The position numbers and the translations under genes are program-made. DNA of 64,000 nt, from the NCBI GenBank assembly GCA_902779355.1, contig CACZBF010000002.1, positions 9,633 to 73,632 of the forward strand, in the 5' to 3' direction. Source of the stretch: an uncultured Lachnospiraceae bacterium (GTDB lineage: Bacteria; Bacillota; Clostridia; Lachnospirales; Lachnospiraceae). The notes below the pieces were generated by a model. It saw nothing but the letters and a program-made list of their open reading frames with translations, was not told the origin of the DNA and did no database searches. This document shows, piece after piece, positions 32,431 to 53,879 of this stretch; within the stretch, counting starts at the first letter, position 1, and every line of letters begins with the position of its first letter.

Positions 32431-32483
32431 CACTTTCTCCTCTCAATTCTCTCCTTCTTTCTTTTCTGAAAGAAGGTAGTTCC

Positions 32484-32597: not shown

Positions 32598-33773
32598 TTA
32601 TTTCGTTGTACTCTTCTTTGCTGCGAGGATGTCGAACACCACGGCGCCGAGGAGCACCAGACCTTTGACGATCTTCTGCCAGTCGGCATTGACACCCATC
32701 AGGGACATACCGAGGTTGATGACACCGATCAGCGTTGCACCGACAACCATACCGGTGATCTTACCGGATCCGCCGTATGCGGAAACGCCGCCGACCACGC
32801 AGGCTGCGATGGCATCCATTTCGAAATAGGTACCGGCTGTCGAGTTCGCTGCCTGAAACCGCGCGGATACGATGAACGTTGTCACTGCGGTCAATACTGC
32901 CATGTTCAGATAAGCCAGGAACATGATCTTTCTCGTATCAATACCGGAAAGCCTCGTTGCCTCCGCATTGTCACCGATCGTGTAGAAGTAACGTCCGGTC
33001 GTCGTCTTGGAAGTGATGAAACTGTAAAGCAGGACGATCGCCACCACCCATACCAGTACAGTCGGGATACCGCCGGATAATGCGAGCTTGTAAGCAAACA
33101 GCATGATCGCTGCGACACCCAGCACGCTCTTTAAGATCACGGCCATCAGAGAATCTGCTTCGTATCCTTTTTTCAGCTTTCTCGCTCTGGTTGAAAAAAC
33201 GAGCACCACCAACAGCACACTTGCGACGATACCTACGATGAGGCAGATCAGGTTCAGCTGCCCGACCGGAGTGGAAAACAGCTTCCCGGAGAACAGTGCC
33301 AGATAGGTCTCCTCATTGGAGAGGGAAATACTACCCGTCGTGCTGTTTGCACTCAGGATCGCCGTACCAAGACCGCGGAATGCCAGATAACCGGCCAGAG
33401 TCGCAATCCATGGCGGGATGTTGACATACGCGATCAGGAAACCGAGCACACATCCGTAAATCACGCCGATCAAAAGCATGATTCCGATAGATACACCCGC
33501 GCCAAACTGCTTGACCGTCATCAGCACACCACCGACCGCTCCGAGGAAACATACAAAGGATCCGCAGGAGAGATCGATATTACCACCGGTCAGCATACAC
33601 ATCAACATACCGGTAGCAAGGATAAATACATACGCGTTTTGCGTGATCAACGCATTGAAGTTCATTGCCTGGAACATCGAACCGCCTGTCATAATCGTGA
33701 AAAAGATGTAGACCAGGACAAGAACGATGAGCATTGCATTCTTTTTTAATACATTCACAGTTTTACTTGCCAT
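32598..33773 (-). CDS. monosaccharide ABC transporter permease (XylH/GguB-like), paralog 2
   Basis: 391 aa with about 10 TM helices. The motif TGGNIDLSCGS is typical of the CUT2 permease family. Confidence 0.9.
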   Translation of the reverse strand: MASKTVNVLKKNAMLIVLVLVYIFFTIMTGGSMFQAMNFNALITQNAYVFILATGMLMCMLTGGNIDLSCGSFVCFLGAVGGVLMTVKQFGAGVSIGIMLLIGVIYGCVLGFLIAYVNIPPWIATLAGYLAFRGLGTAILSANSTTGSISLSNEETYLALFSGKLFSTPVGQLNLICLIVGIVASVLLVVLVFSTRARKLKKGYEADSLMAVILKSVLGVAAIMLFAYKLALSGGIPTVLVWVVAIVLLYSFITSKTTTGRYFYTIGDNAEATRLSGIDTRKIMFLAYLNMAVLTAVTTFIVSARFQAANSTAGTYFEMDAIAACVVGGVSAYGGSGKITGMVVGATLIGVINLGMSLMGVNADWQKIVKGLVLLGAVVFDILAAKKSTTK

Positions 33774-33785
33774 GTCTCTTCCCCT

Positions 33786-34952
33786 TTACTTTTTCTTTTT
33801 ATTTGACAGCACGTCAAAGATGATAGCCAATAATACGACAATACCTTTTACTACCGTCTGGTAGTTGGCGTTGACACCCATGATACTCATACCCTGGTTG
33901 ATGACACCCATGATCAGAGCACCGATGACAATTCCGAATACGCTGCCCTCTCCACCGTATGCGGAAGCACCGCCGATGAAGCAGGCCGCGATGGCGTCCA
34001 TTTCGTAGCAGTTGCCGGCCGTCGGCTGTGCAAGCCCGGCTCTGGCTGCTACCAGGATACCTGCGAGTCCGGACATCAAACCCATATTGATATACGCATA
34101 AAAGTATACCTTTCTGGAATCAATACCGGAAAGATTGGTTGCCTTTTCATTGCCGCCGACCGCATAGAGGTAACGACCCATGCGGGTGTTCTTCGTGATG
34201 TAGGTGTAAACCAGGAGCACCAACGCAATCCAGATCAGCACCGTCGGCAGACCTTTGTAATTTGCAAGCTTATAGAAGATCCAGATCACAACCACACTGA
34301 TGATCGCAACCTTGATCAGCTCGGTGTAAAGCGGCTGTACTTCGTACTGCTTACGCTTTGCGGAAATACGGGAACGGAATACCATGATGATGTAGATCGT
34401 CACGGCAATGAGTCCGACCAGAAGACAGGTCAGGTTCATATCCTTCCCATGGAAAATATCCGGGATGTAGCAATCCGAACCACCACCGAATACATTCAGG
34501 AAGGTCGTATTGCTGATACCGATCGTATACCCCTGCATGATGACGTTGGACAGTCCGCGGAACGCGTACATACCGGCCAGCGTCGCGATAAAGGGCGGCA
34601 CCTTCACATAGGCGATCCAGAAACCCTGCCAGATACCTACCAGCAGGCCGCCGATCATCATGATCGCAACTGCAACCCAAACGTTGATGTTCTTCTGCAT
34701 GATCACGGCACCGATGCCGCCGACAAAGCAGACCACGGAACCGCAGGCCAGATCGATGTTACCACCGGTCAGGATACAGAGCAGCATACCTGCTGCAAGC
34801 ACGAACACGTATGCGTTCTGGGAGATCAGGTTGTTGATGTTCTGCGGAAGCAGGATACCCCCGCCCGTATTGATCTGGAAAAAGATGACGATAACGATCA
34901 GCGCGATCGCCATCGTGTATTTTCTGAGCACACTGGTGATCTTCAAACTCAT
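33786..34952 (-). CDS. monosaccharide ABC transporter permease (XylH/GguB-like), paralog 1
   Basis: 388 aa, [11 protein letters not shown] motif, ATGA overlap with the ATPase stop. Confidence 0.9.
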
Positions 34953-36496
34953 GCTGCGTCACCTCCTCCCGTCGACTGGATGATGCAGGCCATGATATTC
35001 TCCTGCGTCGCTTCGGATGCTTTCATCTCACCGACAAATTTCCCTTCATTCATAATATAGATCCGGTCACTCATGCCGATAACCTCCGGAAGCTCGGAAG
35101 AGATCATGACCACCGACTTTCCTTCCGCGACAAGATCGTTGATGATGCAATAGATCTCGTACTTCGCACCGACGTCGATACCTCTGGTCGGTTCGTCCAG
35201 GATCAGGATATCCGGATTCGTAAACATCCATTTTGCAAGAAGCACTTTCTGCTGGTTACCACCGGAAAGATTGCCGACGCTCTGTTCGACGGTCGGCGTC
35301 TTGGTCTTCAGCTTATTCTTGTACTCAACTGCAACATTGTACTCCTGGTCGGTATCGATCACGCCGCGCTGGCTGACGCCCTTCATATTGGCAAGGGACG
35401 TATTCACACGGATGGACTTGCCTAGCACAAGCCCGTTGCCCTTCCGGTCCTCCGTCACATAAGCAAGCTTTGCATCGATCGCTTCACGAGGCGACTTCAG
35501 ATTGACGGTCTGTCCGTTAAGCTGCATTGTCCCCGTGATCGTGGAACCGTAAGACTTTCCGAAAATACTCATTGCAAGCTCGGTACGTCCTGCGCCCATC
35601 AGACCGTAAATACCAACCACTTCGCCTTTGCGGACGTTGAAGTTGACATTGTCGACCACCTTACGCTCCGCATAGATCGGATGGAATACCGTCCAATCTT
35701 TGACTTCCATATTGACTTCGCCGATCTCGACACCACTCCGCTTCGGGAAACGATCCGTGATCTCGCGGCCAACCATGCCCTTGATGATCCGCTCTTCACT
35801 CACTTCATTTTCGTGGCAGTCAAGCGTCTCTACCGTGGAACCGTCACGGACGACAGTGATCTTATCCGCAACGTAAACCACCTCATTCAGTTTATGGGTG
35901 ATAATGATCATCGTCATACCCTGCTTCTTGAAAGAAAGCATCAAATCCAGAAGCGCTCTGGAATCCGTCTCATTCAATGACGATGTCGGCTCATCCAGGA
36001 TCAGCAGCTTTGCATTTTTGGCGAGTGCTTTTGCGATCTCGACCAACTGCTGTTTTCCTGTTCCTATATCTTTCACCAGCACACGAGACGATTCCGACAA
36101 GCCCACCATCTTCAGATACTTGTCCGCCTCGCCGTAGGTTTCATTCCAATTGATCGCGTTTTTGGTGCCCCGCTCATTTCCGAGGAACATGTTTTCCCCG
36201 ATCGTCATCTGCGGTACCAGGGCCAGCTCCTGATGAATGATCACGATTCCCTTTTTCTCGGAATCCTTGATCTTCTGGAACTGACAGACTTCCCCATTGT
36301 AAATGATATCTCCCTCATAAGTCCCATGCGGATAGATGCCGCTGAGGACGTTCATAAGGGTGGATTTACCCGCTCCGTTCTCTCCGACAAGTGCGTGGAT
36401 TTCTCCCTCTTCAACCTGGAAATTGACATTGTCAAGTGCCTTGACACCGGGGAAAGTTTTGGTAATATTTTTCATTTCAAGAATTACCTTGCCCAA
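34949..36496 (-). CDS. sugar ABC transporter ATP-binding protein (fused double ATPase, MglA/GguA-like)
   Basis: TTG start 5 nt after [28 protein letters not shown]. Walker A motifs GENGAGKST and GLMGAGRTE, signature LSGGNQQK. Confidence 0.9.
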
Positions 36497-36542
36497 AATA
36501 TCCCTCCTCTGTATACGTCAGTTAACATCTGCTTTACATTTT

Positions 36543-36572
36543 AACAGGCGGGCTAAAGAAAACCCGCCTGTT
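36543..36572 (-). terminator. intra-operon hairpin after the binding-protein gene
   Basis: AACAGGCGGG-N10-CCCGCCTGTT between the binding-protein stop (36600) and the ATPase start (36496). Confidence 0.45.
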
Positions 36573-36599
36573 TAAATGATGTGTTCGTTCGAACTGAGA

Positions 36600-37703
36600 T
36601 TACTTCAGCTGATCCTCGGTGTAGTAGCCGGAATCGATCAACAGCTCTTTGTAGTTGTTTGCATCCGCGAATACGGGCTCGCAAAGGTAAGACGGAACAG
36701 TGATCTTGTTGTTGTTGTAGGTCTCGGTGTCGTTGACATCAACCTCAGAACCACTTAGGATCTGGCCAACCATCTTAACAACCTGGCTTGCAAGTGTACG
36801 GGTATCTTTGAATACGGACATAGACTGCTTTCCAGCGATCATGTTCTTCGTGTTCTCGATATCGCAGTCCTGACCGGTGATGATCGGGTACTTGCCGGTG
36901 TAGTTTGCTGCAAGAGCGTTCTCTACGCCAAGAGCGGTAGAGTCGTTGGAGCAAAGCCATACATCAAGCTCGGTGCCGTCTGCATAGTAGGTGGACAGGA
37001 TGTTCTCTGCACGCTTCTGAGCTACATCAGTACCCCAGGTCGGAGTTGCAACATCTTCGAATGCGGTCTGGCCGGAAACGACGTTCAGCTTGCCCTCGTC
37101 GATGTACGGCTTCAGAAGATCCATAGCACCGTTGAAGAAGAAGCCTGCGTTGTTGTCGCCCGGGTCACCAGCGGTGAACTCGATGTTGAACGGGCCGGAA
37201 GCATTGTCAAGATCAAGCGTATCGATGACATACTGACCCTGAACCTGACCAACTTTGTAGTTGTCGAACGTTGCATAGTAGGAAACTGCATCGGAGTCCA
37301 TCAGAAGACGGTCATAAGCGATAACCGGGATTCCTGCATCCTTTGCCATGTCAAGAGCTTCACCAAGGGAAGAACCCTCGATTGCTGCGATAACGAGCAC
37401 GTTGCATCCGCCGGAGATCATGTTCTCAACCTGGGACAGCTGCTGCTGTACATCGTTTGCTGCGTACTGAAGGTCTACATCGTAACCTGCTGCCTTCAGA
37501 TCCTTCTCCATGTTCGCGCCGTCCTGGTTCCATCTCTGCAGATCCTTTGTCGGCATGGAAACACCAACCTTGCTGCCACCAGCTGCTCCACCAGCTGCTG
37601 CGCCGCCTGCTGCTGCACCGCCTGCTGCCGGGCCTGCACAGCCTGCGAAAAGGCTTGCTACCATTGCGACACTCAAGAAAGCGCCAAGTAGTTTTTTCTT
37701 CAT
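36600..37703 (-). CDS. ChvE/XylF-type monosaccharide-binding lipoprotein (CUT2)
   Basis: MKKKLLGAFLSVAMVASLFAGCAG lipobox, an (A/G)-rich linker, then a periplasmic-binding-protein type I fold (VGVSMPTKDLQRWNQDG...). Confidence 0.9.
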   Translation of the reverse strand: MKKKLLGAFLSVAMVASLFAGCAGPAAGGAAAGGAAAGGAAGGSKVGVSMPTKDLQRWNQDGANMEKDLKAAGYDVDLQYAANDVQQQLSQVENMISGGCNVLVIAAIEGSSLGEALDMAKDAGIPVIAYDRLLMDSDAVSYYATFDNYKVGQVQGQYVIDTLDLDNASGPFNIEFTAGDPGDNNAGFFFNGAMDLLKPYIDEGKLNVVSGQTAFEDVATPTWGTDVAQKRAENILSTYYADGTELDVWLCSNDSTALGVENALAANYTGKYPIITGQDCDIENTKNMIAGKQSMSVFKDTRTLASQVVKMVGQILSGSEVDVNDTETYNNNKITVPSYLCEPVFADANNYKELLIDSGYYTEDQLK

Positions 37704-37804
37704 TCTTTCTCTCCTCCTTAGTTTGTTAAAAATGAATGAAAACCGTTGTGCGTGTCTCCCACGCATCAACCCGCTTACAGGAACTAGGTTAACACAACGT
37801 CATT

Positions 37805-37841: not shown

Positions 37842-37855
37842 TGAAAACGTTTTCG
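37842..37855. promoter_or_regulatory. cre-like palindromic box TGAAAACGTTTTCG (copy 1)
   Basis: Contains the perfect 12-bp palindrome GAAAACGTTTTC. One terminal mismatch to the cre consensus. Confidence 0.45.
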
Positions 37856-37879
37856 TGAAAAGAAAAAGGACATTCTTGC

Positions 37880-37893
37880 TGAAAACGTTTTCG
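37880..37893. promoter_or_regulatory. cre-like palindromic box TGAAAACGTTTTCG (copy 2)
   Basis: Identical 15-nt string TGAAAACGTTTTCGT to copy 1, 38 bp away. Confidence 0.45.
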
Positions 37894-37940
37894 TTCCGCA
37901 AAAATGTCCTGTTGACAGTTTCCTGTAAATTCTGCAACGC

Positions 37941-39347
37941 CTACTGGAAAGGCTTGATCCATGCGGCATAGCCGGCAGGCACTGATGTGTACTGGAGGAG
38001 ATATCCGTCGCTCGTTTCCTCCATCACCTTGCAGTAGAGCTCACCGCCCGCTTCTACCTGAAGATTGTCATATACCTCCAGCGGCGTCTCCGTTTCGAAC
38101 AACGCCCTGTCGTTTGCCACGGCAACGATCCCGCCGTAGTAACGTTTTGCCGCGCCATGTTTTCCTTCTATCTTATGGAAGGAAACCGGTACCGTCGTCT
38201 TCAGCGGCTGCGGCTCCGTGTGCCCGGTGTTGACGTAGATCTTGTAAGATCCGCCGATCCCGGTCACGTGCGAAATCGTTAAAGAACCTTCATGCCCCTT
38301 CGGATAGACCACCATTTCATTGGCGATCTCAAGATCCACGGCTGCGCTCTTCTTCGTATCCGGAGAGATCAGCACCTGTCCTCCCACGGTATAGCTCTCG
38401 ATCCGGCCGCAGAGATTGACGTTGCTCCCGGCCACGCCATATTTCGTGCGTTTCTCCGAACCGATATTGCCGACGATCACATCGCCCGTATGCAGACCGA
38501 TCCCCATCTCTAGCGTGGCGTATCCGTGCTCGTTGTTCCATTTATTGATGTCAGCCATCGTGCGCTGCATCTCAAGCGCTGCAGCAACCGCATCCGCCGC
38601 ATGATGATCCGACTGCGCCGGTGCGCCGAAGATCGCCATGATCCCATCACCGATAAACTCGATAATCGTGCCGTTGTATCGCTGGATCACCTCTGTCATG
38701 GCGCCGAGATAATGGTTGAGCATCGTGATCAGGTCGTTGGCATCCATATGCTCACTCAGCGCGGTAAAGCCTCTGAGGTCGCTCATCATGATCGTGAGCA
38801 CCTGCTTCTTGCCGCCGAGCGCAAGCCCGTCCGGCGTATCCAGGAGCTGCTTCACGATCTCGTCGGAAAGGAATCGTCCGAATGTCGTGCTGAGGAGCTG
38901 ATTACGCATCTCCAGGCGCTCGTTGAGGCTCTGAATCCGCTTCAGCGACTCTGCCGCATCACGAAGCTCCATGAGCTCACTCATATCACGGAACACGATG
39001 ATCACGCCCGTGCGTTCTTTGTTCTCCGTGTAGAAAGAAGTGACCACACGCAGGACCAGCTTTTTTTCGCCGACCATATAAGAAACGATGGCATCATGCG
39101 CCTTCGCCCGGTCATAGACCGCGTTCAGTACCGCCTGGGAAAACTCGTCGTTCTCCGGCCTCTCAAAGAAAACAGCCGCAAACTTCCGCCCCAGCGTCTC
39201 CTCCCGATTCAGCGCAAGGATCTCTTCCGCTGCCGGATTAAAGTACTCAATGACACCGTCAAATCCGATCAGCATAACGCCTTCGGACATGTGCCGGACA
39301 ATACTGTCTGTTTGGAATCCCGATGGATCATTCAACGGTTTTTGCAC
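37941..39347 (-). CDS. PAS-domain class III adenylate/guanylate cyclase with a ~95-aa C-terminal extension
   Basis: Cyclase motifs MMSDLRGFT, IEFIGDGIMAIFG, GLHTGDVIVGNIG, GSNVNLCGRIES. N-terminal PAS (GVMLIGFDGVIEYFNPAAEEILAL). The start is uncertain: GTG 39347 (GAGGAG SD), GTG 39380 or ATG 39290. Confidence 0.85.
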   Translation of the reverse strand: MQKPLNDPSGFQTDSIVRHMSEGVMLIGFDGVIEYFNPAAEEILALNREETLGRKFAAVFFERPENDEFSQAVLNAVYDRAKAHDAIVSYMVGEKKLVLRVVTSFYTENKERTGVIIVFRDMSELMELRDAAESLKRIQSLNERLEMRNQLLSTTFGRFLSDEIVKQLLDTPDGLALGGKKQVLTIMMSDLRGFTALSEHMDANDLITMLNHYLGAMTEVIQRYNGTIIEFIGDGIMAIFGAPAQSDHHAADAVAAALEMQRTMADINKWNNEHGYATLEMGIGLHTGDVIVGNIGSEKRTKYGVAGSNVNLCGRIESYTVGGQVLISPDTKKSAAVDLEIANEMVVYPKGHEGSLTISHVTGIGGSYKIYVNTGHTEPQPLKTTVPVSFHKIEGKHGAAKRYYGGIVAVANDRALFETETPLEVYDNLQVEAGGELYCKVMEETSDGYLLQYTSVPAGYAAWIKPFQ

Positions 39348-40362
39348 GATACTCCTCTGTCTCCTTCTGAATCTCAGCACTTGGCATTTCGTTGTTCTCC
39401 TCAGCCTTTGTCACCTGATATACCAGACGGCAGGCGTTCAGATAATCCTTTGTCAGTCTCCGCAGACGGGAAGAAAGATGAGATAAGATCATGCGGACCT
39501 TCGGCGGATTCTGCTCAAAAAGATCGTAAAGGTCCTCAGGCTGGATCGTTTCGATCGTGGTCTCATCCTCCAGCGTGATCGCGGTCGCGCTGCGCGGATC
39601 GCTGCAGATCATCCCCATCTCGCCAAAGAACTGATTCGGATAAACCTCCGTCAGCAGCTTCTCGGACGGTGTCGCATAATCACGATAGATACCAATCTTG
39701 CCACTGTGTACATCATACATACAGTTGCCATTCTCGCCTTCGCGGAAGATAACGGTCCCCTTCGGGAACTGCTCCACCTGTACGGAAAAGCCTTCGGAAA
39801 GATTTCTTTCCTCTTGCTGTCTGGCTGCCTCAACACTGACCTGTGATGCAGTTTTCCGGTGCATGCTATAGTAAGCCGCGTGTTTCTTAAGGCGCTGGAT
39901 CAGACTCTCACTCCGTCCGCTCGTATCACCCGGCTTCATCTCCCTGATCGCTGCATTGACCTCAGCATAATCATTGGTGAGCACACGCACTCTGTCGCCC
40001 AGATAACGCATGATCTCAAGGATCATATCCGGCGAGGAACGGAAGTATTCGTCCATCTGCCCGGACGGCACCTCGATCATTTCCACATCATCACTCAACG
40101 ATACAGCGGTAGCGCTGCGGGCGAAAGATTCGATGACAGCCATTTCCCCAAGAAACTGTCCCTTCCCAAGCTCCGTCAGAAGCTTCTCTCCGCTCTCCCC
40201 ATAGTTGGCATAGACCCCAACCTTGCCGCCGGTGATCTGGTAAAAGCATTCTCCTTCGTCTCCCTCACGGAAGATCACATCGCCTTTTGCGAACTGCTTT
40301 GTTTGCATCTCTTTAACCTGCCTTTCCTTCTCTTTTTGGTTGATTGAAACCGCTGTTTTCAT
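39328..40362 (-). CDS. tandem cyclic-nucleotide-binding (CNB) domain protein without an output domain
   Basis: Two phosphate-binding cassettes: GQFLGEMAVIESFARSATAVS and NQFFGEMGMICSDPRSATAIT. Each follows a beta-barrel start (FAKGDVIFREGDEG / FPKGTVIFREGENG). The C-terminus is a short helical tail with no HTH. Confidence 0.85.
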   Translation of the reverse strand: MKTAVSINQKEKERQVKEMQTKQFAKGDVIFREGDEGECFYQITGGKVGVYANYGESGEKLLTELGKGQFLGEMAVIESFARSATAVSLSDDVEMIEVPSGQMDEYFRSSPDMILEIMRYLGDRVRVLTNDYAEVNAAIREMKPGDTSGRSESLIQRLKKHAAYYSMHRKTASQVSVEAARQQEERNLSEGFSVQVEQFPKGTVIFREGENGNCMYDVHSGKIGIYRDYATPSEKLLTEVYPNQFFGEMGMICSDPRSATAITLEDETTIETIQPEDLYDLFEQNPPKVRMILSHLSSRLRRLTKDYLNACRLVYQVTKAEENNEMPSAEIQKETEEYRAKTVE

Positions 40363-40412
40363 TTTACGCCTTCACTTTTTGATTTTCAACAGCACATTCT
40401 TGCACTCGGATC

Positions 40413-41444
40413 TCAGCCGCCATCTCCTTTTGCATAAAGATACACTTCGTCTCTTGTATGGAATCCGCTGCCGATGATCACGCTGTCGATGTTGTCTCTG
40501 GTCACGGCGATCGGCGTGAGAACGATCGCCGGCACGTCGTAAGTGCCGTCGTTTTCCGTCCCGGTCAGATCGTTGACCTTTTCCCCTTTGATCAGCGCGA
40601 TCGTTGCCTTGGCTGCTGCGCGGGCTTCTTTTTCCACAGGCTTATAGATCGTGGTGAGCTGTGTCCCCTGCACGATCCGCTGACAGGCCTCCAGCTCCGC
40701 ATCCTGTCCTGTCACAAGGATATGACCTGCCTTCCTGCGCTCTGCAAGAAACCGCACCACCTGTGTCGCGATGCCGTCATTCCCGCACATCAGCGCATCC
40801 ACTTCGTCCGGGATCGATGGATTCTGTGCCAGAAAATCATAGGCATTCTCCGGCCGCCAGCCAGCGGTATAAAAGATGTCCTGCACCGTGATCCCGTTCT
40901 GCGCGCAGATATCCTGAAAGCCTTCATTGACGCCCCAGACGTTGTTGTCCTCGGTCGGCCCGGAGAGCATATACACCGTCCCCACGCCGCCTTTTTTGAC
41001 CAGCGCTTCCGCCATCAATTCACCGACGCGGCGGTTGTCAAAGGACACATAGAGATCCGCATTCGCATTGTTCAGCATCCGGTCATAGGCAACGACGACG
41101 ATCCCTTTCGCGCGCGCCTCCGCTACCACATCCTTCAAACGTTCCGCATCGACACCGACGATCACGATCGCGTCCATGTTTTTGTCGATCAGATACTCGA
41201 TCTGCTCAATCTGCGTCGCCACATCTCCGTTGGCATTCTGTACATTCACCTCGGCGCCGGCCTCCTTCGCCGTGGAAACAAAGACGTCGCGATCCCGCTC
41301 CCACCGTTCGATCAGAAAGGAGTCAAAGCTGATGCCGATCGAAATCTTGTCGTCCGCCGGTGACACCACCGGTTCTGTCTCCACGGGTTCGGCGCATCCC
41401 GCAAGGAGCAGCAACGCGCAGAGGATCCCTAAGATCTTTTTCAT
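40413..41444 (-). CDS. XylF-like periplasmic sugar-binding lipoprotein (sensor partner type, cf. XylFII)
   Basis: Lipobox LLLLAGCAEP. PBP type I body (ISIGISFDSFLIERWERDRD...). TGATG overlap with the response-regulator stop. No cognate permease or ATPase genes are adjacent. Confidence 0.8.
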   Translation of the reverse strand: MKKILGILCALLLLAGCAEPVETEPVVSPADDKISIGISFDSFLIERWERDRDVFVSTAKEAGAEVNVQNANGDVATQIEQIEYLIDKNMDAIVIVGVDAERLKDVVAEARAKGIVVVAYDRMLNNANADLYVSFDNRRVGELMAEALVKKGGVGTVYMLSGPTEDNNVWGVNEGFQDICAQNGITVQDIFYTAGWRPENAYDFLAQNPSIPDEVDALMCGNDGIATQVVRFLAERRKAGHILVTGQDAELEACQRIVQGTQLTTIYKPVEKEARAAAKATIALIKGEKVNDLTGTENDGTYDVPAIVLTPIAVTRDNIDSVIIGSGFHTRDEVYLYAKGDGG

Positions 41445-43042
41445 CACCTCACCCCTTCCTTGTACTCCGTCGGCGTCACACCGACGTTTTTCTTGAAGGT
41501 TCTGGAAAAATAGTTCGGATCCGCATAGCCCACGCAGGCACAGATCTCCTTCATCGAAAGATCTGACCCGCTGAGGAGCTCTTTGGCATGGTCGATCCTG
41601 ACATTCGTCAGGTATTCAATGAAGTTTTCTCCGGTCTCTTCCTTAAATATCTTGCTGAAATAATACGGGCTGATATCCACGATCCGTGAGACATCGTCCA
41701 GGGACAGATCTTTCCCATAGTTTTCGTTGATGTAATCCTTCGCACGTCCGACCGCGGATTTCGTGCGTTTCACACTGCTGCCGGAGACAAGGCGCACCGC
41801 ATCGGTGAGCTTCCTTAAGAACCACGCTCGCAGCCGCTCTTTGTCTTCTCCGATCTCCAGAATCTCCGGGAGGTAGGATGCTCTGGAAAGGAAGCGATAG
41901 GTCTCGTTGCTGCTGTGATAAGCGATCGTCTCCGCGCGGATCACAAATTCCAGCGTCTTCAGCTGGATATCTGAGAGCGCATCGCCATAGGTATCGCACA
42001 TCCAGTCAAAAAAGCGGATTGCCTCCTCCTGCTGTGCCTTTTCGTCGCCCTTTTCCGTCGCCTCAAAAATCGCCTTCTCGGTCTCCACCGGATAGTTTTC
42101 CTCGAAACTGCACCCGGACGGAATATCATCCACATGCGCCACACTTCCCTCCGACTGGATCAGCGCACGCAGCGCATCGTGATAAGAATCGATCGCTGCC
42201 ATTGGCTCGGTGATGCGGCCGAACCCCATCCGGGCCTCGATCTCCGTACGGGTCCTGATCTTTCTCATCAGCTCTCTGGCACGGTCGATCTGCTCGACAC
42301 GTTCGTTATAATCCTGCTCTTTTTCATCCGTCGGAAAATAGACGGCGATCTTGTTGCCGGTCACCGCACCGACAAAGCAGTGAAAATAACTACGGATCAA
42401 CTCACGCACCTCGGTATAATGCGTATGGAGTTTGATGGAACTGCCGACAGCATTTGTCATGTGGTTCCCGACGCGGCTGTCTCCGAAGACCAGCACGCCC
42501 AGATAACACCTGCTCTCCTTGATGTCCAGCAGATTTTTATAGTTCTCCACATCCTCCTCGAAATACTCCTGAAACAGGAGGCTGTAGATCAGTCCGTTTT
42601 CGATGACCGGCGCCACGATCTCCATTTTTTCTTTGATCATGAGCTCACGGTTGCGGCTTTCTCTGGCGCTGTCGACCTGACGCATCGCATCCCGCAGGAC
42701 TTCTAAGATCCGCTCCTTGTCGACGGGTTTGGAAAGATACTCGCGCACGCCGAGGTTGATTGCCTCTTTCGCATAATCAAACTTGTCATAGGCGCTCATG
42801 ATGATCACCAACAGGGAATCATTGTTGCGGCGGATCTCGCGGATTGCCTCGATCCCGTTGATGCCGGGCATGTGGATATCCATAAACGCAATATCCGGAC
42901 GGAATGTCTCTGCCAGTTCGATCACGGCGCGTCCGGTTTTCGCGGAGCGGATCTCGCACTGCCCTTTGAATTCTTTTTCAATAATGAACGTCAGCGACTC
43001 GATGACGATCCCCTCGTCATCCGCCAGCATGATTCGATACAT
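41444..43042 (-). CDS. two-component response regulator with AraC-type output (YesN-like)
   Basis: Receiver MYRIMLADDEGIV...IAFMDIHMPGINGIEA. C-terminal AraC HTH ICACVGYADPNYFSRTFKKNVGVTPTEYK. Confidence 0.9.
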   Translation of the reverse strand: MYRIMLADDEGIVIESLTFIIEKEFKGQCEIRSAKTGRAVIELAETFRPDIAFMDIHMPGINGIEAIREIRRNNDSLLVIIMSAYDKFDYAKEAINLGVREYLSKPVDKERILEVLRDAMRQVDSARESRNRELMIKEKMEIVAPVIENGLIYSLLFQEYFEEDVENYKNLLDIKESRCYLGVLVFGDSRVGNHMTNAVGSSIKLHTHYTEVRELIRSYFHCFVGAVTGNKIAVYFPTDEKEQDYNERVEQIDRARELMRKIRTRTEIEARMGFGRITEPMAAIDSYHDALRALIQSEGSVAHVDDIPSGCSFEENYPVETEKAIFEATEKGDEKAQQEEAIRFFDWMCDTYGDALSDIQLKTLEFVIRAETIAYHSSNETYRFLSRASYLPEILEIGEDKERLRAWFLRKLTDAVRLVSGSSVKRTKSAVGRAKDYINENYGKDLSLDDVSRIVDISPYYFSKIFKEETGENFIEYLTNVRIDHAKELLSGSDLSMKEICACVGYADPNYFSRTFKKNVGVTPTEYKEGVR

Positions 43043-43057: not shown

Positions 43058-44548
43058 CTATGATTCCTGTGATGTGATCTGCGCTGCATCGGGCGCATCC
43101 TTTTCTTCCTGCGCTTCGACCGGGATCGGGATCCTGATCGTCACGGTCGTGCCCTTTCCAAGGCCCTCACTGTTGATCTCAAAGACACGGTCGTCCTTAT
43201 AGAGAAGCCGCAGACGGCTTGCCACGTTCTGCAGGCCGATCCCGCCGTGTTCTCCGCTCGGCTCTTCCACAGAGGGCTTTCCGTTCTGGATCTCAAAAAG
43301 TTTCTCCGGCGTGATCCCCGCGCCGTTATCCGTAATGTCGATCCTGCAGCAGCCGTCCTCTCCGGAGACTTTCATCCTGATCACGCCTTCTCCCGCCATA
43401 TCCCTGATCCCGTGAGAAACCGCGTTTTCCACGACAGGCTGCAGCGTCATCGCAGGAAGTTCCACGGAAAGGAGCGACGGATCCACTTCTTTTTCATAAC
43501 CGACCTCTCCCGAAAAGCGGATATTGATAATGTAGATATAGGTGTCCACCATCGTGATCTCATCGGACAGCGGCACCGGCGCATCCTGCTTTTTGATGTT
43601 GTAGCGGAAAAAGTCCGCGACATTCTGGATATACTCGTAGGTACGATCCGCATCCTCCATCATGGCAAGCTGCGCACCCGCATTCAACGTATTGAACAAA
43701 AAATGCGGATTGATCTGCGCCTGCAGAAACCGCAGCTGCGCTTCATGCAGCCTTACCTCCGTCACGACGCCGCGCCGGATACTGTCCAGCATACGGTTGA
43801 ATGCCGTGATGAGGATACCAGGTTCGTCCTTGACATTCGTGTCCGGGATCACCACATCGTAGTTGCCGTCCGCCACCTGTCCGGCAGCGCCGGCCAGTGT
43901 CGCAAGCGGCTGTGTGATCCGGCGCACCACGACGATCGCAAGCAGAATGTTGAGCAGTGTGATCCAGACAAAGACCAGCACGTTTGCCACGACGACCGTG
44001 TGAAAGGACCGCGTCATCTCGAGATAATTGGTGGAGTTGCTGTTTAAGAGCTCGTTGTTCAGACTGTTGATATAGACTCTGAGATACCCGTACAGCGTTG
44101 TCGCGTTCTCATATTGCAGACGGTACTTGTCGATGTTGCGCCCGCGCTTTGCCTCGATCGCGGCATCCGTGACCTCCAGATACCGGTCACTCATCATCCG
44201 GATATTGCGTTCCATCCGAACCGTCCGCTCGCCGGTCACTTCATAAGGAAGAGATGCGATCTGGTCGCTGTAATCCTGATACGCTTTGTAATAGGCATCC
44301 ATGTCATCCGTGGACTTTGTCTCGAGGAATCCCGTCATCGTATACTGCACGGTGTCGAGCGATTCGGAAAGTTCGCTGAGGGAAATGTTGCCTTCGAACA
44401 CGTCATCCAACGTGGAAACGGTCTGATACACATTCCGGTAGACAAACAGATCCGCCATCAGCATGATCACGGCCGTGATGCTGTAGGTGAGGATCAGTTT
44501 TTTGCGGATAGACAGATCGGAAAAGAATTTCTCCAGTCTCAGTCTCAT
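43058..44548 (-). CDS. sensor histidine kinase (YesM/LytS-type, HAMP + His_kinase + HATPase_c)
   Basis: Two TM helices with an extracytoplasmic loop. RFLQAQINPHFLFNTLN H-box and GGIGLQNVASRL G-box. ATGA overlap with the upstream gene. Confidence 0.9.
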   Translation of the reverse strand: MRLRLEKFFSDLSIRKKLILTYSITAVIMLMADLFVYRNVYQTVSTLDDVFEGNISLSELSESLDTVQYTMTGFLETKSTDDMDAYYKAYQDYSDQIASLPYEVTGERTVRMERNIRMMSDRYLEVTDAAIEAKRGRNIDKYRLQYENATTLYGYLRVYINSLNNELLNSNSTNYLEMTRSFHTVVVANVLVFVWITLLNILLAIVVVRRITQPLATLAGAAGQVADGNYDVVIPDTNVKDEPGILITAFNRMLDSIRRGVVTEVRLHEAQLRFLQAQINPHFLFNTLNAGAQLAMMEDADRTYEYIQNVADFFRYNIKKQDAPVPLSDEITMVDTYIYIINIRFSGEVGYEKEVDPSLLSVELPAMTLQPVVENAVSHGIRDMAGEGVIRMKVSGEDGCCRIDITDNGAGITPEKLFEIQNGKPSVEEPSGEHGGIGLQNVASRLRLLYKDDRVFEINSEGLGKGTTVTIRIPIPVEAQEEKDAPDAAQITSQES

Positions 44549-45594
44549 TCTTCCCCTCCCTGTGCTTTCACGGTTTCCTTGTCCACCACGTAGGTGTCCG
44601 CCATAAAGTATTCGCTGACATAGCCGCTGTCCAGATATTCGTTCAATGCGGTAGTGCAATCCTTGCCCATCTGCACCGCATCCACCGTGATCGTTGCTGA
44701 CAGGATCTCATTCTCGATCGCTTTGCGGATGCTTTCGGAATCATAATAGCCGATGATGCTGCACTGTCCCACGACGTTGTTGTCCACGGCCGCCTGGTAG
44801 GCGCTGTTGGTATGCTCTTCATTCAATGCCACGAGAATATCCGGTACATTCTCCGGATCCATCAGGAGCTCCGTCACGGAACGCTGGGAGGCAAAGGTGC
44901 CGAAATCATCTATTTCGCGGGTCTCGAAATCGATCCGCCCGTAAAGATCGGCATCCGCCGAAACACTGTCGCGAATTGTGCTGATGAGGAGTTTTTGGGA
45001 CTCCGCATCTGCATTTTTCCCGGTCAGCACTGTGATCTTCAGTCGATTCCTATCATTCAGCAGTTTTTTCGCAAGGATCACGACCTGTCGTCCGTATAGC
45101 CCACCAAGATCATATCGGCTGATGCCGACGTAGCTGATCCTGCCGGTCCCGGCGTCGTCATTTCCGCCCACCAGCACCACCGGGATCCCTGCCTCGGTCG
45201 CAGCAGCGATCTCGTTTTTCTCGGCATTCCGGTTGACATTCTCGACGATGATCCCGTCCACGCCGGATGCAACTGCGATCCTGATCCGTTCCTCCAGACT
45301 GTATCCGACCGCAAGGTCCGACGCGAAGTCCTCCACAAAGGCATCCGTGTCTTCGCCTTCCTTGTGCGCGCCTTCATAGACTTCTTTCCAGAAAGAGGAA
45401 TTCTCCTCATCCGAGATAAACGCATAATACCGGTCGTAAGTCTTTAATGCTTCCTCTTTCTTTCCGGAAAGGTTTGCACTCCGCTGCGACCAGAACAGCG
45501 CCAAAGCAGTCGCGATCGTGGTCAGAACCAATAATAACGGGAGAATCCAATAGTATCGTCTTCTTCCCTTTTTCCCTTCGGGAACGGTTTTCAT
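44545..45594 (-). CDS. membrane-anchored periplasmic-binding-protein-like (sugar-binding fold) protein
   Basis: N-terminal anchor YYWILPLLLVLTTIATALALFW, then a PBP type I-like pattern (YYAFISDEENSSFWKEVYEGA...GIPVVLVGG...). ATGA overlaps at both ends. Confidence 0.7.
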   Translation of the reverse strand: MKTVPEGKKGRRRYYWILPLLLVLTTIATALALFWSQRSANLSGKKEEALKTYDRYYAFISDEENSSFWKEVYEGAHKEGEDTDAFVEDFASDLAVGYSLEERIRIAVASGVDGIIVENVNRNAEKNEIAAATEAGIPVVLVGGNDDAGTGRISYVGISRYDLGGLYGRQVVILAKKLLNDRNRLKITVLTGKNADAESQKLLISTIRDSVSADADLYGRIDFETREIDDFGTFASQRSVTELLMDPENVPDILVALNEEHTNSAYQAAVDNNVVGQCSIIGYYDSESIRKAIENEILSATITVDAVQMGKDCTTALNEYLDSGYVSEYFMADTYVVDKETVKAQGGEE

Positions 45595-47552
45595 GCGCCC
45601 TCCGGGAGTTGCAAGGTCTGACCCGCATAGATCAGGCGCGGATTGGCAATGACATTTTTGTTCAGGTCATAAAGTTCTTCCCAACGGGTGCCGTCGCCAT
45701 ACAGCTTATCGGCGATGATCCAGAGGGTGTCATCCTGCTGCACCTCGTAAGTATCTTTGCCTGCCGAAGTCGCATCCTCCGCAGTGTCCTCCTCCGGCTT
45801 GCTCTCATCGGAGGTCTCGGCGCTCTCTTCCGTCTTCTCGTCGTCAGACTTCTCCTCGTCAGACTTCTCATCCTCGGACTTTTCGTCCTTTGCCTCTTGG
45901 CTGTCTGCCGTGAGGATCGTATCATCCCCTCTCGGCTCACTGTACGTAGAGGCCGGGATCACGCCGTTTAGTTCTTTTTCAATGTACTGCGTGATCGCAT
46001 CATCCAGGAGATATCCCGTATCAAAGTTGTCTTTGGCGCCGAATACCGCATAGGTATCTCCGCCCGCTGCCACGAAATCATTCGTGATCACGGCATAGGT
46101 CGCTTTTTCGTCAAACGGCTTTCCGTTGACGCTCTCCACCGAAACGCGCTGAATGGAGTTCGGCTGATGGTAGGTGGAGTTCGGATAAAGATCTCCTCCG
46201 TCATATGCTTTTGTCGTATCGATCGTAAATTTGATCCCGCTGGTCTGCGGAAATCCTCCGAGAGGTTCCGGCGTACTGAAGGTGCTGGCTTCCAGAGCCT
46301 CCAGCAGTTCCTCTCCCGTGACATAGACTACAGCCACGCTGTTTCCAAACGGAAATACCGTATTCAGATCCTTTTTCGTAATATCTCCCTTGGGAAGTGT
46401 ATCGCGAATACCGCCGCCGTTTTCCAATGCGATCACATGATCCGGATCTGTTTCCAGAATACTCGGATCCTGCAGGATATACCATTTCATCGCATCCGTC
46501 GTCAGATCTCCGAGGGCAATCTCCTGATCTCTTCCGATATCACCGCCGCCCACAAGCTCCACTTCGCTCTGCGCGATGACCTCGCCGTACTCCTTATCAA
46601 CGGTATCTTCAATCTCTTTCGCCACTTTTTGCACGGTGTCATCCTGCGTGAGGTTCTCTGTGGAGATCAGATAGTGGTCAGCGATCTTTCCATCCTCATC
46701 CACTTCCACCACGCCGATATAAGCGAATTTGCTGCCGGTGGACTGGATCGGCTCCCCGTCATGCGTTTCTGTCATCACGGTATGGGAATGTCCGTCAATC
46801 AGGAAATCAATCCCTTTTGTATTTTCATAAAGGTCGATAGATCGGTTCCCGCTGTCCGCGGAAGAATCATCCACCCCAAGATGCGTCAGTCCGATCACAA
46901 GATCCGCACCATCTTTCTTCAACTGATCAACCACTTCCTGTACGCGATGATCCATTTTCTCGCCGCCAAGGAAAGTCAGTCCCTTTATATTCTCGGGATT
47001 CGCCTTTGTCTGACTCTCCGCCGTATCGATCCCGAAGAAGCCGATCGTCTTGCCGCCTTTCGTCTGATAGGTCCATGTCGGAGGCAAAATCTCTTTTTCG
47101 TCCTTATAGAGGTTTGCGCAGATCAGGGCAAACTCCGCCTCTTTCAGATTGGAGGTAGCAGCCGCCTCTCCGAAGTCAAAGTCATGGTTTCCAAGTGTCG
47201 CAACATCATAACCCGCTGCATTCATCATCTTGACAGCATCCGCGCCGTTCGCTGTATTCACGTACGGTCCGCCCTGCGAAAAATCGCCGGCGTCCGCCAT
47301 GATCACTTCGGCTCCCAGCGCCTCAAATGCATCCCGCATTGCCGTCATCATGGCATACCCGTCAATCGCGCCGTGCACATCATTGGAATGGATGATCACG
47401 GTCTTTCCCGTATAATCTCCGTCCGGCATTTCCCGTACATCCGCCGGATATTCCGTTTCATCCGCCAACACCGTTTCCGGTATCATCGGGAGCGAAAGGA
47501 GCACGCAGCCTGCGCCCAGGATCCCTGCCAATATCCTTTTGATCTGTCTCAT
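45591..47552 (-). CDS. secreted bifunctional metallophosphatase/5'-nucleotidase with an acidic linker and C-terminal LysM domain
   Basis: Signal peptide present. IIHSNDVHG and TLGNHDFDFG metallophosphoesterase motifs, a 5'-nucleotidase C-terminal domain, and LysM YEVQQDDTLWIIADKLYGDGTRWEELYDLNK. Confidence 0.85.
   Translation of the reverse strand: MRQIKRILAGILGAGCVLLSLPMIPETVLADETEYPADVREMPDGDYTGKTVIIHSNDVHGAIDGYAMMTAMRDAFEALGAEVIMADAGDFSQGGPYVNTANGADAVKMMNAAGYDVATLGNHDFDFGEAAATSNLKEAEFALICANLYKDEKEILPPTWTYQTKGGKTIGFFGIDTAESQTKANPENIKGLTFLGGEKMDHRVQEVVDQLKKDGADLVIGLTHLGVDDSSADSGNRSIDLYENTKGIDFLIDGHSHTVMTETHDGEPIQSTGSKFAYIGVVEVDEDGKIADHYLISTENLTQDDTVQKVAKEIEDTVDKEYGEVIAQSEVELVGGGDIGRDQEIALGDLTTDAMKWYILQDPSILETDPDHVIALENGGGIRDTLPKGDITKKDLNTVFPFGNSVAVVYVTGEELLEALEASTFSTPEPLGGFPQTSGIKFTIDTTKAYDGGDLYPNSTYHQPNSIQRVSVESVNGKPFDEKATYAVITNDFVAAGGDTYAVFGAKDNFDTGYLLDDAITQYIEKELNGVIPASTYSEPRGDDTILTADSQEAKDEKSEDEKSDEEKSDDEKTEESAETSDESKPEEDTAEDATSAGKDTYEVQQDDTLWIIADKLYGDGTRWEELYDLNKNVIANPRLIYAGQTLQLPEGA
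45841..45885. repeat. three tandem 15-nt units encoding the acidic (D/E-K-S) linker
   Basis: tcgtcagacttctcc / tcgtcagacttctca / tcctcggacttttcg. Units 1 and 2 are identical at 14 of 15 positions. Confidence 0.6.
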
Positions 47553-49589: not shown

Positions 49590-49610
49590 TTCCTTTGTTC
49601 CTCTCTTTCC

Positions 49611-50783: not shown

Positions 50784-50798
50784 AGCAACCCTCCTTGA

Positions 50799-53700: not shown

Positions 53701-53879
53701 GCTTCATTTTTCGCATAATGAAACTTCCAGCATCCGTCCAGGCTCATCCGGTAACGGGTCTCCCCGCAAAGAAGCTCCTCCACCGAGCCGTACGGAATAT
53801 GATCCGAATGTGCGGGAAGCCGGTTTTCCTGAAAAACTGCAGGATCCCGTACAATTTTGCTGTCAAATTCTTTTTTCAT
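50799..53879 (-). CDS. lacZ: beta-galactosidase, GH2
   Basis: ATG 53879 lies 7 nt after AGAGGG. Acid/base context WSCGNESYGG and nucleophile context ICCEYTHAMGNS. About 1,026 aa. Confidence 0.9.
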   Translation of the reverse strand: MKKEFDSKIVRDPAVFQENRLPAHSDHIPYGSVEELLCGETRYRMSLDGCWKFHYAKNEAQALDGFWKDKGNVIGWEEIRVPSHIQMEGYDRPQYTNVAYPWDGHEELNPPEIPTEFSPVADYALTFSLPAHMQGEKIRISFQGVESGFALFLNGAYIGYSENTFDPAEFDLTEALVDGENFLAVRVWKWTAGSWCEDQDFYRFSGIFRSVYLYAVPRAHVADLSVVPTLNDTFDQGTLNLTWRSEGEGSIDFSLAYDGEEIWKESCPSKDGENTVSAEVKAPELWSAETPNLYELLLTVKDQAGEVKEVIRQDVGFRRFEMKDGLMLLNGKRIVFKGVNRHEFNTHSGRVPDAEALKKDILTMKRHNINAIRTSHYPDDSLIYALCDRYGLYMIAENNLESHGSWDAFLRKTATEDFVVPGNQEIWQPLLLDRINSCYQRDKNHPSILIWSCGNESYGGKVIYEMSQLFRKLDPHRLVHYEGVFWDRSYNDTSDMESEMYPSVADIEQFLAEHPDKPFICCEYTHAMGNSCGGMHKYTDLSDREPRYQGGFIWDYIDQSIAKKDRYGKWFQAYGGDFDERPTDFDFSGNGIVTAAERDPSPKMQEVKYNYQNLTVTFDQEKKEFTVHNKHLFTNADTYDAWISLLADGETVRVVPAELSVAPLSKETFPIPSDLLTEVNARKAAAASLQSCAPEFAVNVSFTLREDTLWAKAGHEVAFGETVYKKERTSYHCDGKLRVVHGKLNLGISGEHFSVMFSTLYPGMTSYVYGGVEMLKAIPKPNFWRAPTANDNGNRMPQRYAQWKIASMYVTGKSSDRFENTAPLVEEKEHSVVVTVKYYLPTEPAAECTVAYEVFADGMVETTLRYTPVKGLPDMPEFGMLFKMDADYDRVKWYGLGPDETYVDRLRGGRLGIFENKVADNYAAYLVPQECGNKCGVRYAKVMDRKGRGLCFSGDDLSFSALPWTPHEIENAMHAYELPEVHYTVVRVAEMQMGVAGDDSWGAETHPEYLLDVSKEKVFTFRFCGI

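Follow-up and report, generated by a model that had tools for sequence, protein, structure and literature searches.

A putative cyclase–receptor cassette with a stand-alone tandem cyclic-nucleotide-binding protein at a monosaccharide uptake locus of a Lachnospiraceae bacterium

To our knowledge, signalling by cyclic GMP (cGMP) has been documented in only a few bacteria, namely Synechocystis, Rhodospirillum centenum, Xanthomonas and Sinorhizobium, and the bacterial cGMP receptors identified so far all carry an output domain. Firmicutes are the textbook case of carbon control without cyclic mononucleotides, using CcpA and HPr instead. The described cGMP pathways end in the CRP-type factors CgrA and Clr (PMC10187061) or in XC_0249, a fusion of a cyclic-nucleotide-binding (CNB) domain to GGDEF (PMC3770947), and a review lists the cGMP receptor protein of Synechocystis as yet to be discovered (PMC10187061). 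Here we describe an adjacent gene pair in a 64,000-nt stretch of an uncultured Lachnospiraceae genome (contig CACZBF010000002.1; hereafter the window), in which one gene encodes a protein made of two CNB domains and the other a class III nucleotidyl cyclase with a PAS sensor domain. The pair lies between genes for a putative sugar sensor and for a monosaccharide ATP-binding cassette (ABC) transporter, and the relevant genes are all on the minus strand. We give roughly even chances to the reading that the pair is a dedicated cyclic-nucleotide cassette, probably using cGMP, whose receptor acts through protein contact and which is wired into the monosaccharide uptake locus.

The CNB protein is the more unusual half of the pair. 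Pfam recognised two cNMP_binding domains (E 1.3e-41) and no further domain, and both domains retain their phosphate-binding cassettes, with the motifs GEMA...RSAT in CNB-A and GEMG...RSAT in CNB-B. The AlphaFold2 model (predicted local distance difference test score, pLDDT, 83.5) comprises two beta barrels, each followed by a helix of 30-37 residues, together with a conserved linker helix (aa 152-172) and a disordered segment (aa 175-187). No helix-turn-helix (HTH) is present in the model, in which the ~55 residues after the second barrel form one long and one short helix (286-322 and 329-336). By sequence, the nearest solved chains are the CNB domains of Plasmodium PKG (PfPKG, E 3e-20) and of PKA regulatory subunits. 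Foldseek likewise ranked PKA-R and PKG highly (E ~1e-13 to 5e-15), but the global template-modelling (TM) scores were 0.23-0.31 and the root-mean-square deviations 12-20 A, suggesting that the single domains match those proteins and that the predicted domain arrangement differs. The same Foldseek search returned CNB proteins only and no output-domain fold.

A preliminary description of this DNA, made from the letters alone, had proposed that the protein consists of two complete CNB domains and lacks any HTH, kinase or channel module, and this was borne out: Pfam, NCBIfam, AlphaFold2 and Foldseek revealed no DNA-binding, kinase or channel module. We also ran a profile search against 1.84 billion representative proteins and examined the best 150 matches. 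Every full-length, single-stretch match among them was a stand-alone protein of 285-347 aa, the longer matches were unrelated multi-CNB repeat proteins, and no fusion of the tandem CNB family to an output domain occurred. On these grounds (domain and fold searches, and the lengths and coverage of the best 150 representatives) we rejected a hidden output domain. Because the protein lacks an output domain, it would have to act through nucleotide-dependent contact with another protein. Its start is ambiguous between ATG 40362 and ATG 40308 (M19); the majority of homologues begin at M19, and we favour ATG 40308 because a promoter-like site overlaps ATG 40362. As a separate observation, four family-specific and (nearly) invariant residues, C214 and H219 in the CMYDxHxG motif of the second barrel and H295 and C311 in the C-terminal helix, could form a metal or redox site.

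The second gene encodes the cyclase, and the architecture proposed for it earlier, PAS plus a class III domain with intact motifs, was confirmed by Pfam and by alignment. Pfam Guanylate_cyc matched aa 182-342 (E 1.9e-29, 103 bits), the translation contains the motifs SDLRGFT, IGDGIMAIFG, GNIG and VNLCGRIES, and the helical linker ends in TFGRFLSD, an element of the FGRY type described as a transducer motif in Cya2-type cyclases (PMC5995499). Among solved structures the best match is the catalytic domain of Synechocystis Cya2 (2W01, E 9e-53), to which the enzyme is 46.7% identical over 195 aa and 51.7% identical in the core. All residues of interest align with Cya2 D448, R450, E488, D492, G562, N569, R573 and K608, for which we follow the residue table and catalytic roles as given for Cya2 in PMC6005667: the metal ligands D448/D492 have their equivalents in SDLRGF and FIGDG, N569/R573 in VNLCGR, K608 in YPKG, and the base-selecting pair E488/G562 in IIEFIGDG and TKYGVAG. 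Identity with Cya2 extends over both metal aspartates, the transition-state N/R pair, the equivalents of E488/G562 and the SEKRTKYG strand. Across 63 CNB-linked cyclases the two Asp, the Asn, the R573 equivalent and the Lys are invariant, and the R450 equivalent is kept in 62/63. By this residue set the enzyme is predicted to be a catalytically competent class III nucleotidyl cyclase.

Two start codons, both in agreement with the N-terminus of the family, are available to the cyclase. GTG 39347 has the sequence GAGGAG 5 nt ahead of it and makes the cyclase gene overlap the CNB gene by 20 nt, as the preliminary description had estimated for that start; TTG 39335 gives an 8-nt overlap.

Beyond the catalytic domain, the last ~95 aa of the cyclase, described earlier as a beta-rich extension, belong to no Pfam family, and AlphaFold2 predicted a six-strand barrel with a terminal helix (aa 360-468, 44 homologues; pLDDT 84, and >90 over barrel and helix). 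Among the 20 best Foldseek matches of the extension in the PDB, 19 were PilZ domains (E 6e-3 to 0.1, TM 0.44-0.58), including those of Alg44, PA2989-type proteins, cellulose synthase, PA0012 and MotI; these matches are of moderate strength. The cyclic di-GMP (c-di-GMP) motifs RxxxR and (D/N)xSxxG are absent from the extension and from the family alignment, and Pfam PilZ gave no match to the extension even at E 10. We therefore rejected a c-di-GMP receptor role for the cyclase C-terminus, whose fold is PilZ-like and in which the binding motifs and the Pfam match are missing. The domain instead has family-invariant motifs of its own (EGKHG, YDN and AGG) and is found in every full-length CNB-linked cyclase, the most distant included. 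The PilZ-like barrel is a hallmark of this cyclase family and a candidate regulatory or docking module. Cya2 requires its own C-terminal extension, itself uncharacterised, for activity (PMC5995499).

The two genes travel together. When one genome per species was scanned, relatives of the CNB protein turned up in at least 228 stretches, of which 80 loci were analysed (designated by L numbers below). Their hosts are mostly rumen Lachnospiraceae, among them Butyrivibrio and Pseudobutyrivibrio, along with Oscillospiraceae and Saccharofermentans; a few loci come from metagenome-assembled genomes (MAGs) labelled Anaerolineaceae. In 61/80 loci the CNB gene has a class III cyclase gene no more than 1.2 kb away, which argues against a chance pairing; the cyclase is downstream on the same strand in 51, convergent in 7 and upstream in 4. 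The cyclase-less loci are mostly truncated contigs or second copies in genomes that hold another, linked copy. Spacing between the two genes is often an overlap or <70 nt, suggesting that they are translationally coupled. We read the pair as a self-contained signalling cassette conserved in rumen and gut Clostridia.

Its association with sugar transport is recurrent and not universal. Context was counted in the 43 loci that extend 8 kb or more to each side (fully flanked): an adjacent cyclase was present in 34/43 and an orthologous ChvE/GguAB transport system in 10/43. The physical tie of the pair to a sugar-sensing locus, noted in the preliminary description, is borne out for the window, and linkage to the same transporter recurs in other lineages; linkage to the sugar sensor is no general property of the family and holds for about a quarter of the fully flanked loci. 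In the window and in three close relatives (L001, L081 and L083; CNB proteins 77-82% identical) the order is sensor, pair, transporter. In eight Oscillospiraceae and Saccharofermentans loci the pair lies directly 3′ of the transporter, and in the five of these with enough upstream sequence the sensor genes precede the transporter. At L036 the pair is divergent from sensor and transporter, and at L052 a CNB gene without a cyclase lies beside two sugar ABC systems, including ChvE/GguAB. Transporter proteins of these other arrangements are 73-88% identical to those of the window and their CNB proteins 45-50%, and in a neighbour-joining tree of CNB proteins the sugar-linked loci occupy at least three separate positions.

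Cyclase-less CNB genes also adjoin transporters of the same broad class. At L062 such a gene follows genes for a binding protein, an ATPase, a permease and an aldo-keto reductase, and a cyclase-less tandem CNB clade (L017 4871-5857, L019 10022-10996, L023 10019-10993) lies beside a Bmp/PnrA-type nucleoside ABC transporter, with a receiver (REC) plus HD-GYP (HD_5) protein on the other side of the CNB gene in L019 and L023 (by Pfam on L019; L023 shares the cluster). Genomes of this clade also hold a cyclase-linked copy, as in strain AD3010 (L016 and L019). Elsewhere, as in L036, L063 and others, the sensor lipoprotein and ChvE genes are direct neighbours with no cassette in between, an adjacency consistent with the cassette having entered that spacer in the lineage of the window. 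The CNB-cyclase pair looks like a mobile cassette.

Table 1. Features of the locus, with positions counted from the first letter of the window
Feature	Position	Strand	Basis and remarks
Stand-alone tandem CNB protein	39328..40362	-	344 aa from ATG 40362, or 326 aa from ATG 40308
CNB-A phosphate-binding cassette GEMAVIESFARSAT, aa 72-85	40108..40149	-	G, E, R in 84/84 family sequences; S in 82/84
CNB-B phosphate-binding cassette GEMGMICSDPRSAT, aa 247-260	39583..39624	-	G, E in 84/84; R in 82/84; S/T in 84/84; T in 84/84
PAS, transducer element, class III cyclase (Glu/Gly type) and PilZ-like barrel	37941..39347	-	468 aa from GTG 39347
PAS sensor domain, aa 14-125	38973..39308	-	Pfam PAS, PAS_4, PAS_9, E ~2e-9 to 4e-9
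Transducer element (TFGRFLSD) and catalytic domain, aa ~155-370	38238..38885	-	Alignment to Cya2
Predicted PilZ-like beta barrel, aa ~380-468	37944..38210	-	AlphaFold2, Foldseek
Promoter-like site TTGAAA-17-TAAAAT	40361..40389	-	Consensus scan, 10/12 matches; upstream of CNB gene
Intrinsic-terminator-like hairpin and U-tract	37858..37910	-	Directly 3′ of cyclase stop codon
cre-like palindrome CGAAAACGTTTTCA, two exact copies	37880-37893 and 37842-37855	-	Pattern search, 237-nt spacer
XylF-like lipoprotein, presumed sugar-sensing binding protein (XylFII analogue)	40413..41447	-	Pfam Peripla_BP_4, E 7.9e-53
YesN-type response regulator (REC and AraC-type HTH)	41444..43042	-	Pfam Response_reg E 1.8e-26, HTH_18 E 1.4e-24
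LytS/YesM-type sensor histidine kinase	43058..44548	-	Pfam HAMP, His_kinase (PF06580), HATPase_c
Membrane-anchored periplasmic-binding-protein-like gene, first of sensor operon	44545..45594	-	Pfam Peripla_BP_4, E 4.7e-21
ChvE/GguA/GguB/GguB-type multiple-monosaccharide ABC operon	32598..37769	-	NCBIfam, Pfam
Secreted 5′-nucleotidase/metallophosphoesterase with acidic Ser/Glu/Lys-rich linker and C-terminal LysM domain	45591-47552	-	
galT	49589-48060	-	Pfam
galK	50783-49611	-	Pfam
lacZ (glycoside hydrolase family 2, GH2, beta-galactosidase)	53885-50799	-	Pfam

In the direction of transcription the window reads lacZ, galK, galT, 5′-nucleotidase, binding-protein-like gene, kinase, regulator, XylF-like lipoprotein, CNB, cyclase, a spacer and the ABC operon (Table 1). 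By sequence, the genes flanking the pair match a three-component sugar sensor of the XylFII-LytS-YesN type adjoining a monosaccharide ABC transporter. Pfam bore out the earlier listing of the sensor genes as binding protein, histidine kinase, response regulator and binding protein, co-directional with the pair. The kinase start (ATG 44548) overlaps the stop codon of the preceding gene, the regulator has a middle domain that is weakly GGDEF_2-like in Pfam, and the lipoprotein has an N-terminal lipobox (LLAGC) and scores 265 bits against NCBIfam XylF, below the 504 cut-off. The membrane-anchored binding-protein-like gene is kept in L001, L081 and L083. The preliminary description had placed the CNB gene 50 nt downstream of the sensor genes, which holds for ATG 40362 but becomes 104 nt with ATG 40308.

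On the other side of the pair, the ABC operon encodes a binding protein, a double-cassette ATPase and two permeases (37703-32598), and its binding-protein gene probably starts at ATG ~37703. NCBIfam scores were 826 bits for GguA (cut-off 810), 456 for ChvE (cut-off 460), and 465 and 382 for the two permeases against GguB (cut-off 450). Further upstream, the lacZ-galK-galT block (48060-53885), found in identical order in the relative L081, points tentatively to galactose or a galactoside product as the sugar that is sensed and taken up. The 5′-nucleotidase gene, whose last 4 nt are shared with the start of the first sensor gene, also occurs in L083 and not in L081 or L001. Beyond the ABC operon lie genes for an RCK/Castor-Pollux-type channel protein (30559-32433) and a clostripain-family peptidase (28401-30554), both following, in order of position, a 1627-aa open reading frame (ORF) at 23435-28318 (minus strand) that has no Pfam match at E 1e-5 and lies in a stretch of strongly negative AT skew.

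The pair has candidate transcription signals of its own. Since a promoter-like site stands at the 5′ end of the CNB gene and a terminator-like hairpin follows the cyclase, the sequence suggests that the pair can be transcribed as a separate unit. The predicted hairpin has a folding free energy of -22 kcal/mol (z -5.6; 0/200 shuffles equally stable) and is followed by UUUUUCUUUU. No terminator was found after the XylF-like lipoprotein gene, and read-through from the sensor operon is possible.

The 237-nt spacer between the cyclase and the ABC operon also holds two exact copies of CGAAAACGTTTTCA, a motif close to the consensus of the catabolite-responsive element (cre). The motif is over-represented in the window, with 8 strand-matches at up to 2 mismatches on both strands against 0.65 expected. 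One copy forms the tip of the terminator hairpin, and the second lies 25 nt beyond it, ahead of the ChvE gene. The ABC operon had been described beforehand as a cre-guarded monosaccharide operon; its ChvE/GguAB identity and the two palindromes stand, but the location of one copy in the hairpin tip qualifies the operator part of that claim. Near-copies with 2 mismatches occur at 13027-13040 and at 57362-57375, the latter just 3′ of a 326-aa ORF (57377-58357) weakly similar to the response regulator, and this spread suggests a catabolite-control operator common to the whole window.

Several further observations concern individual loci of the family. L028 (8274-13436) has a Hanks-type Ser/Thr protein kinase gene directly 5′ of the CNB, TIM-barrel and GH2 genes, the GH2 gene being 3′ of CNB and TIM barrel; it is the sole kinase-adjacent family member seen. 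Rumen MAGs labelled Anaerolineaceae, Chloroflexi or Leptolinea (L033, L037, L046 and L056) carry a CNB gene with a convergent cyclase, with a TIM-barrel gene in L033, L037 and L046 and a same-class ABC transporter nearby in L033 and L037; these cases reflect either inter-phylum transfer inside the rumen or a binning error. In L041, L043, L054, L058 and other Butyrivibrio loci, genes for a STAS anti-sigma antagonist and a SpoIIE-type PP2C phosphatase recur within a few kb of the pair, as do two conserved proteins without a Pfam match, a neighbourhood that may reflect genus-level synteny.

Taken together, these features outline how the cassette could operate. The writer would be a cytoplasmic, dimeric class III cyclase, controlled by its PAS domain through a coiled-coil linker and the transducer element and converting GTP to cGMP; its PilZ-like barrel would not bind c-di-GMP in the canonical way and would probably be regulatory or serve in docking. 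The reader, the ~326-344-aa protein with two CNB domains, would make nucleotide-dependent contact with another protein, binding the transporter ATPase, the kinase or the YesN-type regulator. A signal sensed inside the cell by the PAS domain would in this way feed into the control of monosaccharide, possibly galactose, uptake.

A number of points weigh against a cGMP cassette wired into sugar uptake. In about three quarters of the family loci no sugar system lies inside 10 kb, so the generic partner of the receptor may have nothing to do with sugar uptake and could, for instance, be the cyclase. The loci are also phylogenetically related, such that the counts overstate independent events. The window encodes no phosphodiesterase. 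The position of Cya2 Tyr572 is occupied by Gly in 62/63 CNB-linked cyclases (NLCGR versus NLTYR), and the CNB cassettes read R-S-A-T, a motif that is not diagnostic for cAMP or cGMP. The promoter call at 40361..40389 is a consensus match, and the family as a whole is known from sequences and models.

It is possible, if on balance unlikely, that the CNB protein merely regulates or buffers its own cyclase, by feedback or as a sink, and that the sugar locus is an incidental insertion site. The cyclase is the sole universal neighbour of the CNB gene, often overlapping it or very closely spaced, and its ever-present PilZ-like domain is a possible docking site; that the majority of loci have no sugar system and that the cassette has its own transcription signals would also fit. 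Such an account sits less easily with the recurrence of the orthologous transporter beside the pair in at least three lineages and in differing gene orders, and with the cyclase-less CNB paralogues, which still lie beside ABC transporters of the same class and have no cyclase to regulate.

The identity of the messenger hinges on the base-selecting residues. Adenylyl cyclases have Lys/Asp(Thr) at these positions, mammalian guanylyl cyclases Glu/Cys(Ser) and Cya2 Glu/Gly, as set out in PMC4215837 and PMC6005667; the CNB-linked cyclases have Glu in 62/63 and Gly in 60/63. Because the window enzyme carries the Glu/Gly pair of Cya2, its sequence makes cGMP more likely than cAMP as the product, with cAMP a live alternative; this inspection of the substrate-specifying residues had been suggested in the preliminary description. 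Specificity is nonetheless uncertain because the equivalent of Tyr572, which precedes R573 and, according to the account in PMC4215837, strongly boosts guanylyl cyclase activity and GTP turnover in Cya2, is replaced by Gly. The alternative of an adenylyl cyclase paired with a tandem CNB receptor for cAMP is, in our judgement, rather unlikely. Besides the lost GTP-enhancing Tyr, this alternative can point to the predominance of adenylyl cyclases among bacterial class III enzymes and to the source annotations of relatives, which read "adenylate cyclase"; the adenylyl-cyclase Lys and Asp are, however, replaced almost throughout the family, the closest characterised relative is a guanylyl cyclase, and in Cya2 the single change E488K suffices to create an adenylyl cyclase (PMC5995499). 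The R-S of the CNB cassettes is the form seen in E. coli CRP, which binds cAMP, and the cGMP receptor CgrA has RT at that position (PMC10187061); as R-S-A-T is undiagnostic, we dropped the cassettes as a means of telling the two nucleotides apart.

Two further identities have very little to recommend them. A Pycsar-type anti-phage system, in which a cyclic-pyrimidine cyclase is paired with a CNB effector, was raised by the two-gene layout and by PADLOC matches to PycC (E 1.8e-24) and to the CNB part of PycTIR effectors (E 4.5e-20), and we rejected it as highly improbable: the matches are at domain level, covering only the shared cyclase and CNB domains, the CNB protein, unlike Pycsar effectors, carries neither a TIR nor a transmembrane nor any other toxic module, a PAS sensor forms part of the cyclase, and the context is metabolic and syntenic across species and is not a defence island. 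Equally far-fetched is an ordinary CRP/FNR-type factor with an unrecognised DNA-binding domain, to which the best NCBIfam match (CRP, E 7e-24, far below cut-off) and the CRP-like long helix after each barrel might lead, since Pfam finds no HTH, Foldseek finds CNB proteins only, and a second CNB domain fills the half where CRP has its DNA-binding domain. What had been named beforehand as fatal to the proposal was looked at in the course of this work: no catalytic residue is lost, no hidden DNA-binding domain was found, and the linkage is conserved in part; the Guanylate_cyc, cNMP_binding and PAS architectures were all recovered by profile searches (Pfam).

A third gene accompanies the pair in part of the family. 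In 28/80 loci a ~260-aa TIM-barrel gene stands between the CNB and cyclase genes (for example L002 1572-2366 and L010 10968-11756); none was found in the window. In L069 (10989-13127) the PAS-cyclase carries a fused TIM barrel at its N-terminus, one only distantly related to the stand-alone genes, and the top 120 TIM-barrel relatives are all stand-alone. The proteins match Pfam AP_endonuc_2, and their source annotation reads "sugar phosphate isomerase/epimerase". Nine residues are invariant (H71, H112, E149, D176, H179, H202, D211, H213 and E242) and fall, by alignment, on conserved His, Asp and Glu of E. coli Nfo; these nine positions are reportedly the ligands of the trinuclear metal site of endonuclease IV (Hosfield et al. 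1999). In a profile search of the PDB the best matches were MJ1311 (3e-27), M. tuberculosis endonuclease IV (7e-11) and E. coli Nfo (2e-8), with sugar epimerases ranking lower (6e-7 or weaker); MJ1311 is a predicted endonuclease IV homologue (PMC2770678). With nine metal ligands invariant and endonuclease IV outranking the epimerases, we dropped the TIM barrel as a sugar isomerase or "sugar input". Its predicted chemistry is phosphodiester hydrolysis, and we speculate that it may be the phosphodiesterase of the cassette.

The fullest version of the proposal would be a complete, undescribed cGMP system with a cyclase writer, a tandem CNB reader and, in many species, a TIM-barrel eraser, in which the reader gates monosaccharide ABC uptake or the YesN-type regulator by cGMP-dependent contact. 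We rate this as improbable; if true, it would amount to a cGMP-based counterpart of inducer exclusion and catabolite control in a phylum thought to use CcpA and HPr only. Should the less elaborate cassette hold, a cGMP-type cyclase and a bare tandem CNB protein, conserved in >200 species from the leading fibre-degrading families of the rumen, would put a further level of regulation on the choice and import of plant-derived monosaccharides, supply a receptor class for Cya2-type cyclases, and exemplify a minimal nucleotide sensor working purely through protein-protein contact. This would be a probable cGMP system in a phylum with none described, and it is testable in cultured strains, carriers being available in Butyrivibrio, Pseudobutyrivibrio and the Lachnospiraceae strains AC3007, AD3010 and NE2001.

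Set beside known systems, the window cyclase most resembles Cya2. Both have a homodimer-type class III catalytic domain with the same Asp pair, Asn/Arg pair, SEKRTKYG strand and Glu/Gly pair, preceded by an FGR[FY] transducer and followed by a C-terminal extension of ~100-120 aa. They differ in their sensors, Cya2 being membrane-anchored with an extracellular CHASE2 domain and the window enzyme predicted to be cytoplasmic with a PAS domain, in the exchange of Tyr572 for Gly, and in the presence of an adjacent CNB gene, a receptor of the kind still awaited in Synechocystis. The closest parallel to the gene pair is XC_0250/XC_0249 of Xanthomonas campestris, likewise adjacent genes for a class III cyclase and a CNB receptor without a CRP-type factor (PMC3770947). 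There, however, a single CNB domain is fused to a GGDEF output, whereas the window receptor has two CNB domains and no output; XC_0250 carries tetratricopeptide repeats in place of the PAS and PilZ-like domains; and the window host is a Gram-positive anaerobe.

The receptor recalls PKA-R and PKG, its best PDB matches in both sequence and fold, in its tandem CNB-A and CNB-B domains with intact phosphate-binding cassettes. The label "PKA-R-like", used in the preliminary description, fits this domain composition but not the rest of the protein: CNB-A begins within ~20 residues of the N-terminus (at residue 1 in most homologues), with no dimerisation/docking domain or inhibitor (pseudosubstrate) segment, the operon has no kinase partner gene, the predicted inter-domain geometry differs, as the low global TM scores indicate, and each barrel is followed by a CRP-like long helix. 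The protein is neither a PKA-R-type subunit nor a CRP/FNR factor. The C-terminus of the cyclase shares its predicted fold with the PilZ receptors Alg44, BcsA and YcgR, and differs from them in having EGKHG, YDN and AGG in place of RxxxR and (D/N)xSxxG.

The surrounding genes resemble the XylFII-LytS-YesN system of Clostridium beijerinckii, in which a LytS-type kinase and a YesN-type AraC regulator work with a sugar-binding lipoprotein to control an adjacent monosaccharide ABC transporter (PMC8050422). No cyclic-nucleotide genes are described for that system (PMC8050422), whereas the window has the cassette between sensor and transporter; it also adds the membrane-anchored binding-protein-like gene, and its transporter is of the ChvE/GguAB type and not XylFGH. 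Our literature search brought up neither a report of such cyclic-nucleotide signalling for Clostridia, Lachnospiraceae or Butyrivibrio nor an account of a bacterial receptor consisting of tandem CNB domains alone. A two-CNB protein of Myxococcus xanthus, CbpB, has reportedly been described. The building blocks of the cassette are all of known domain types, and we found no published account of their combination.

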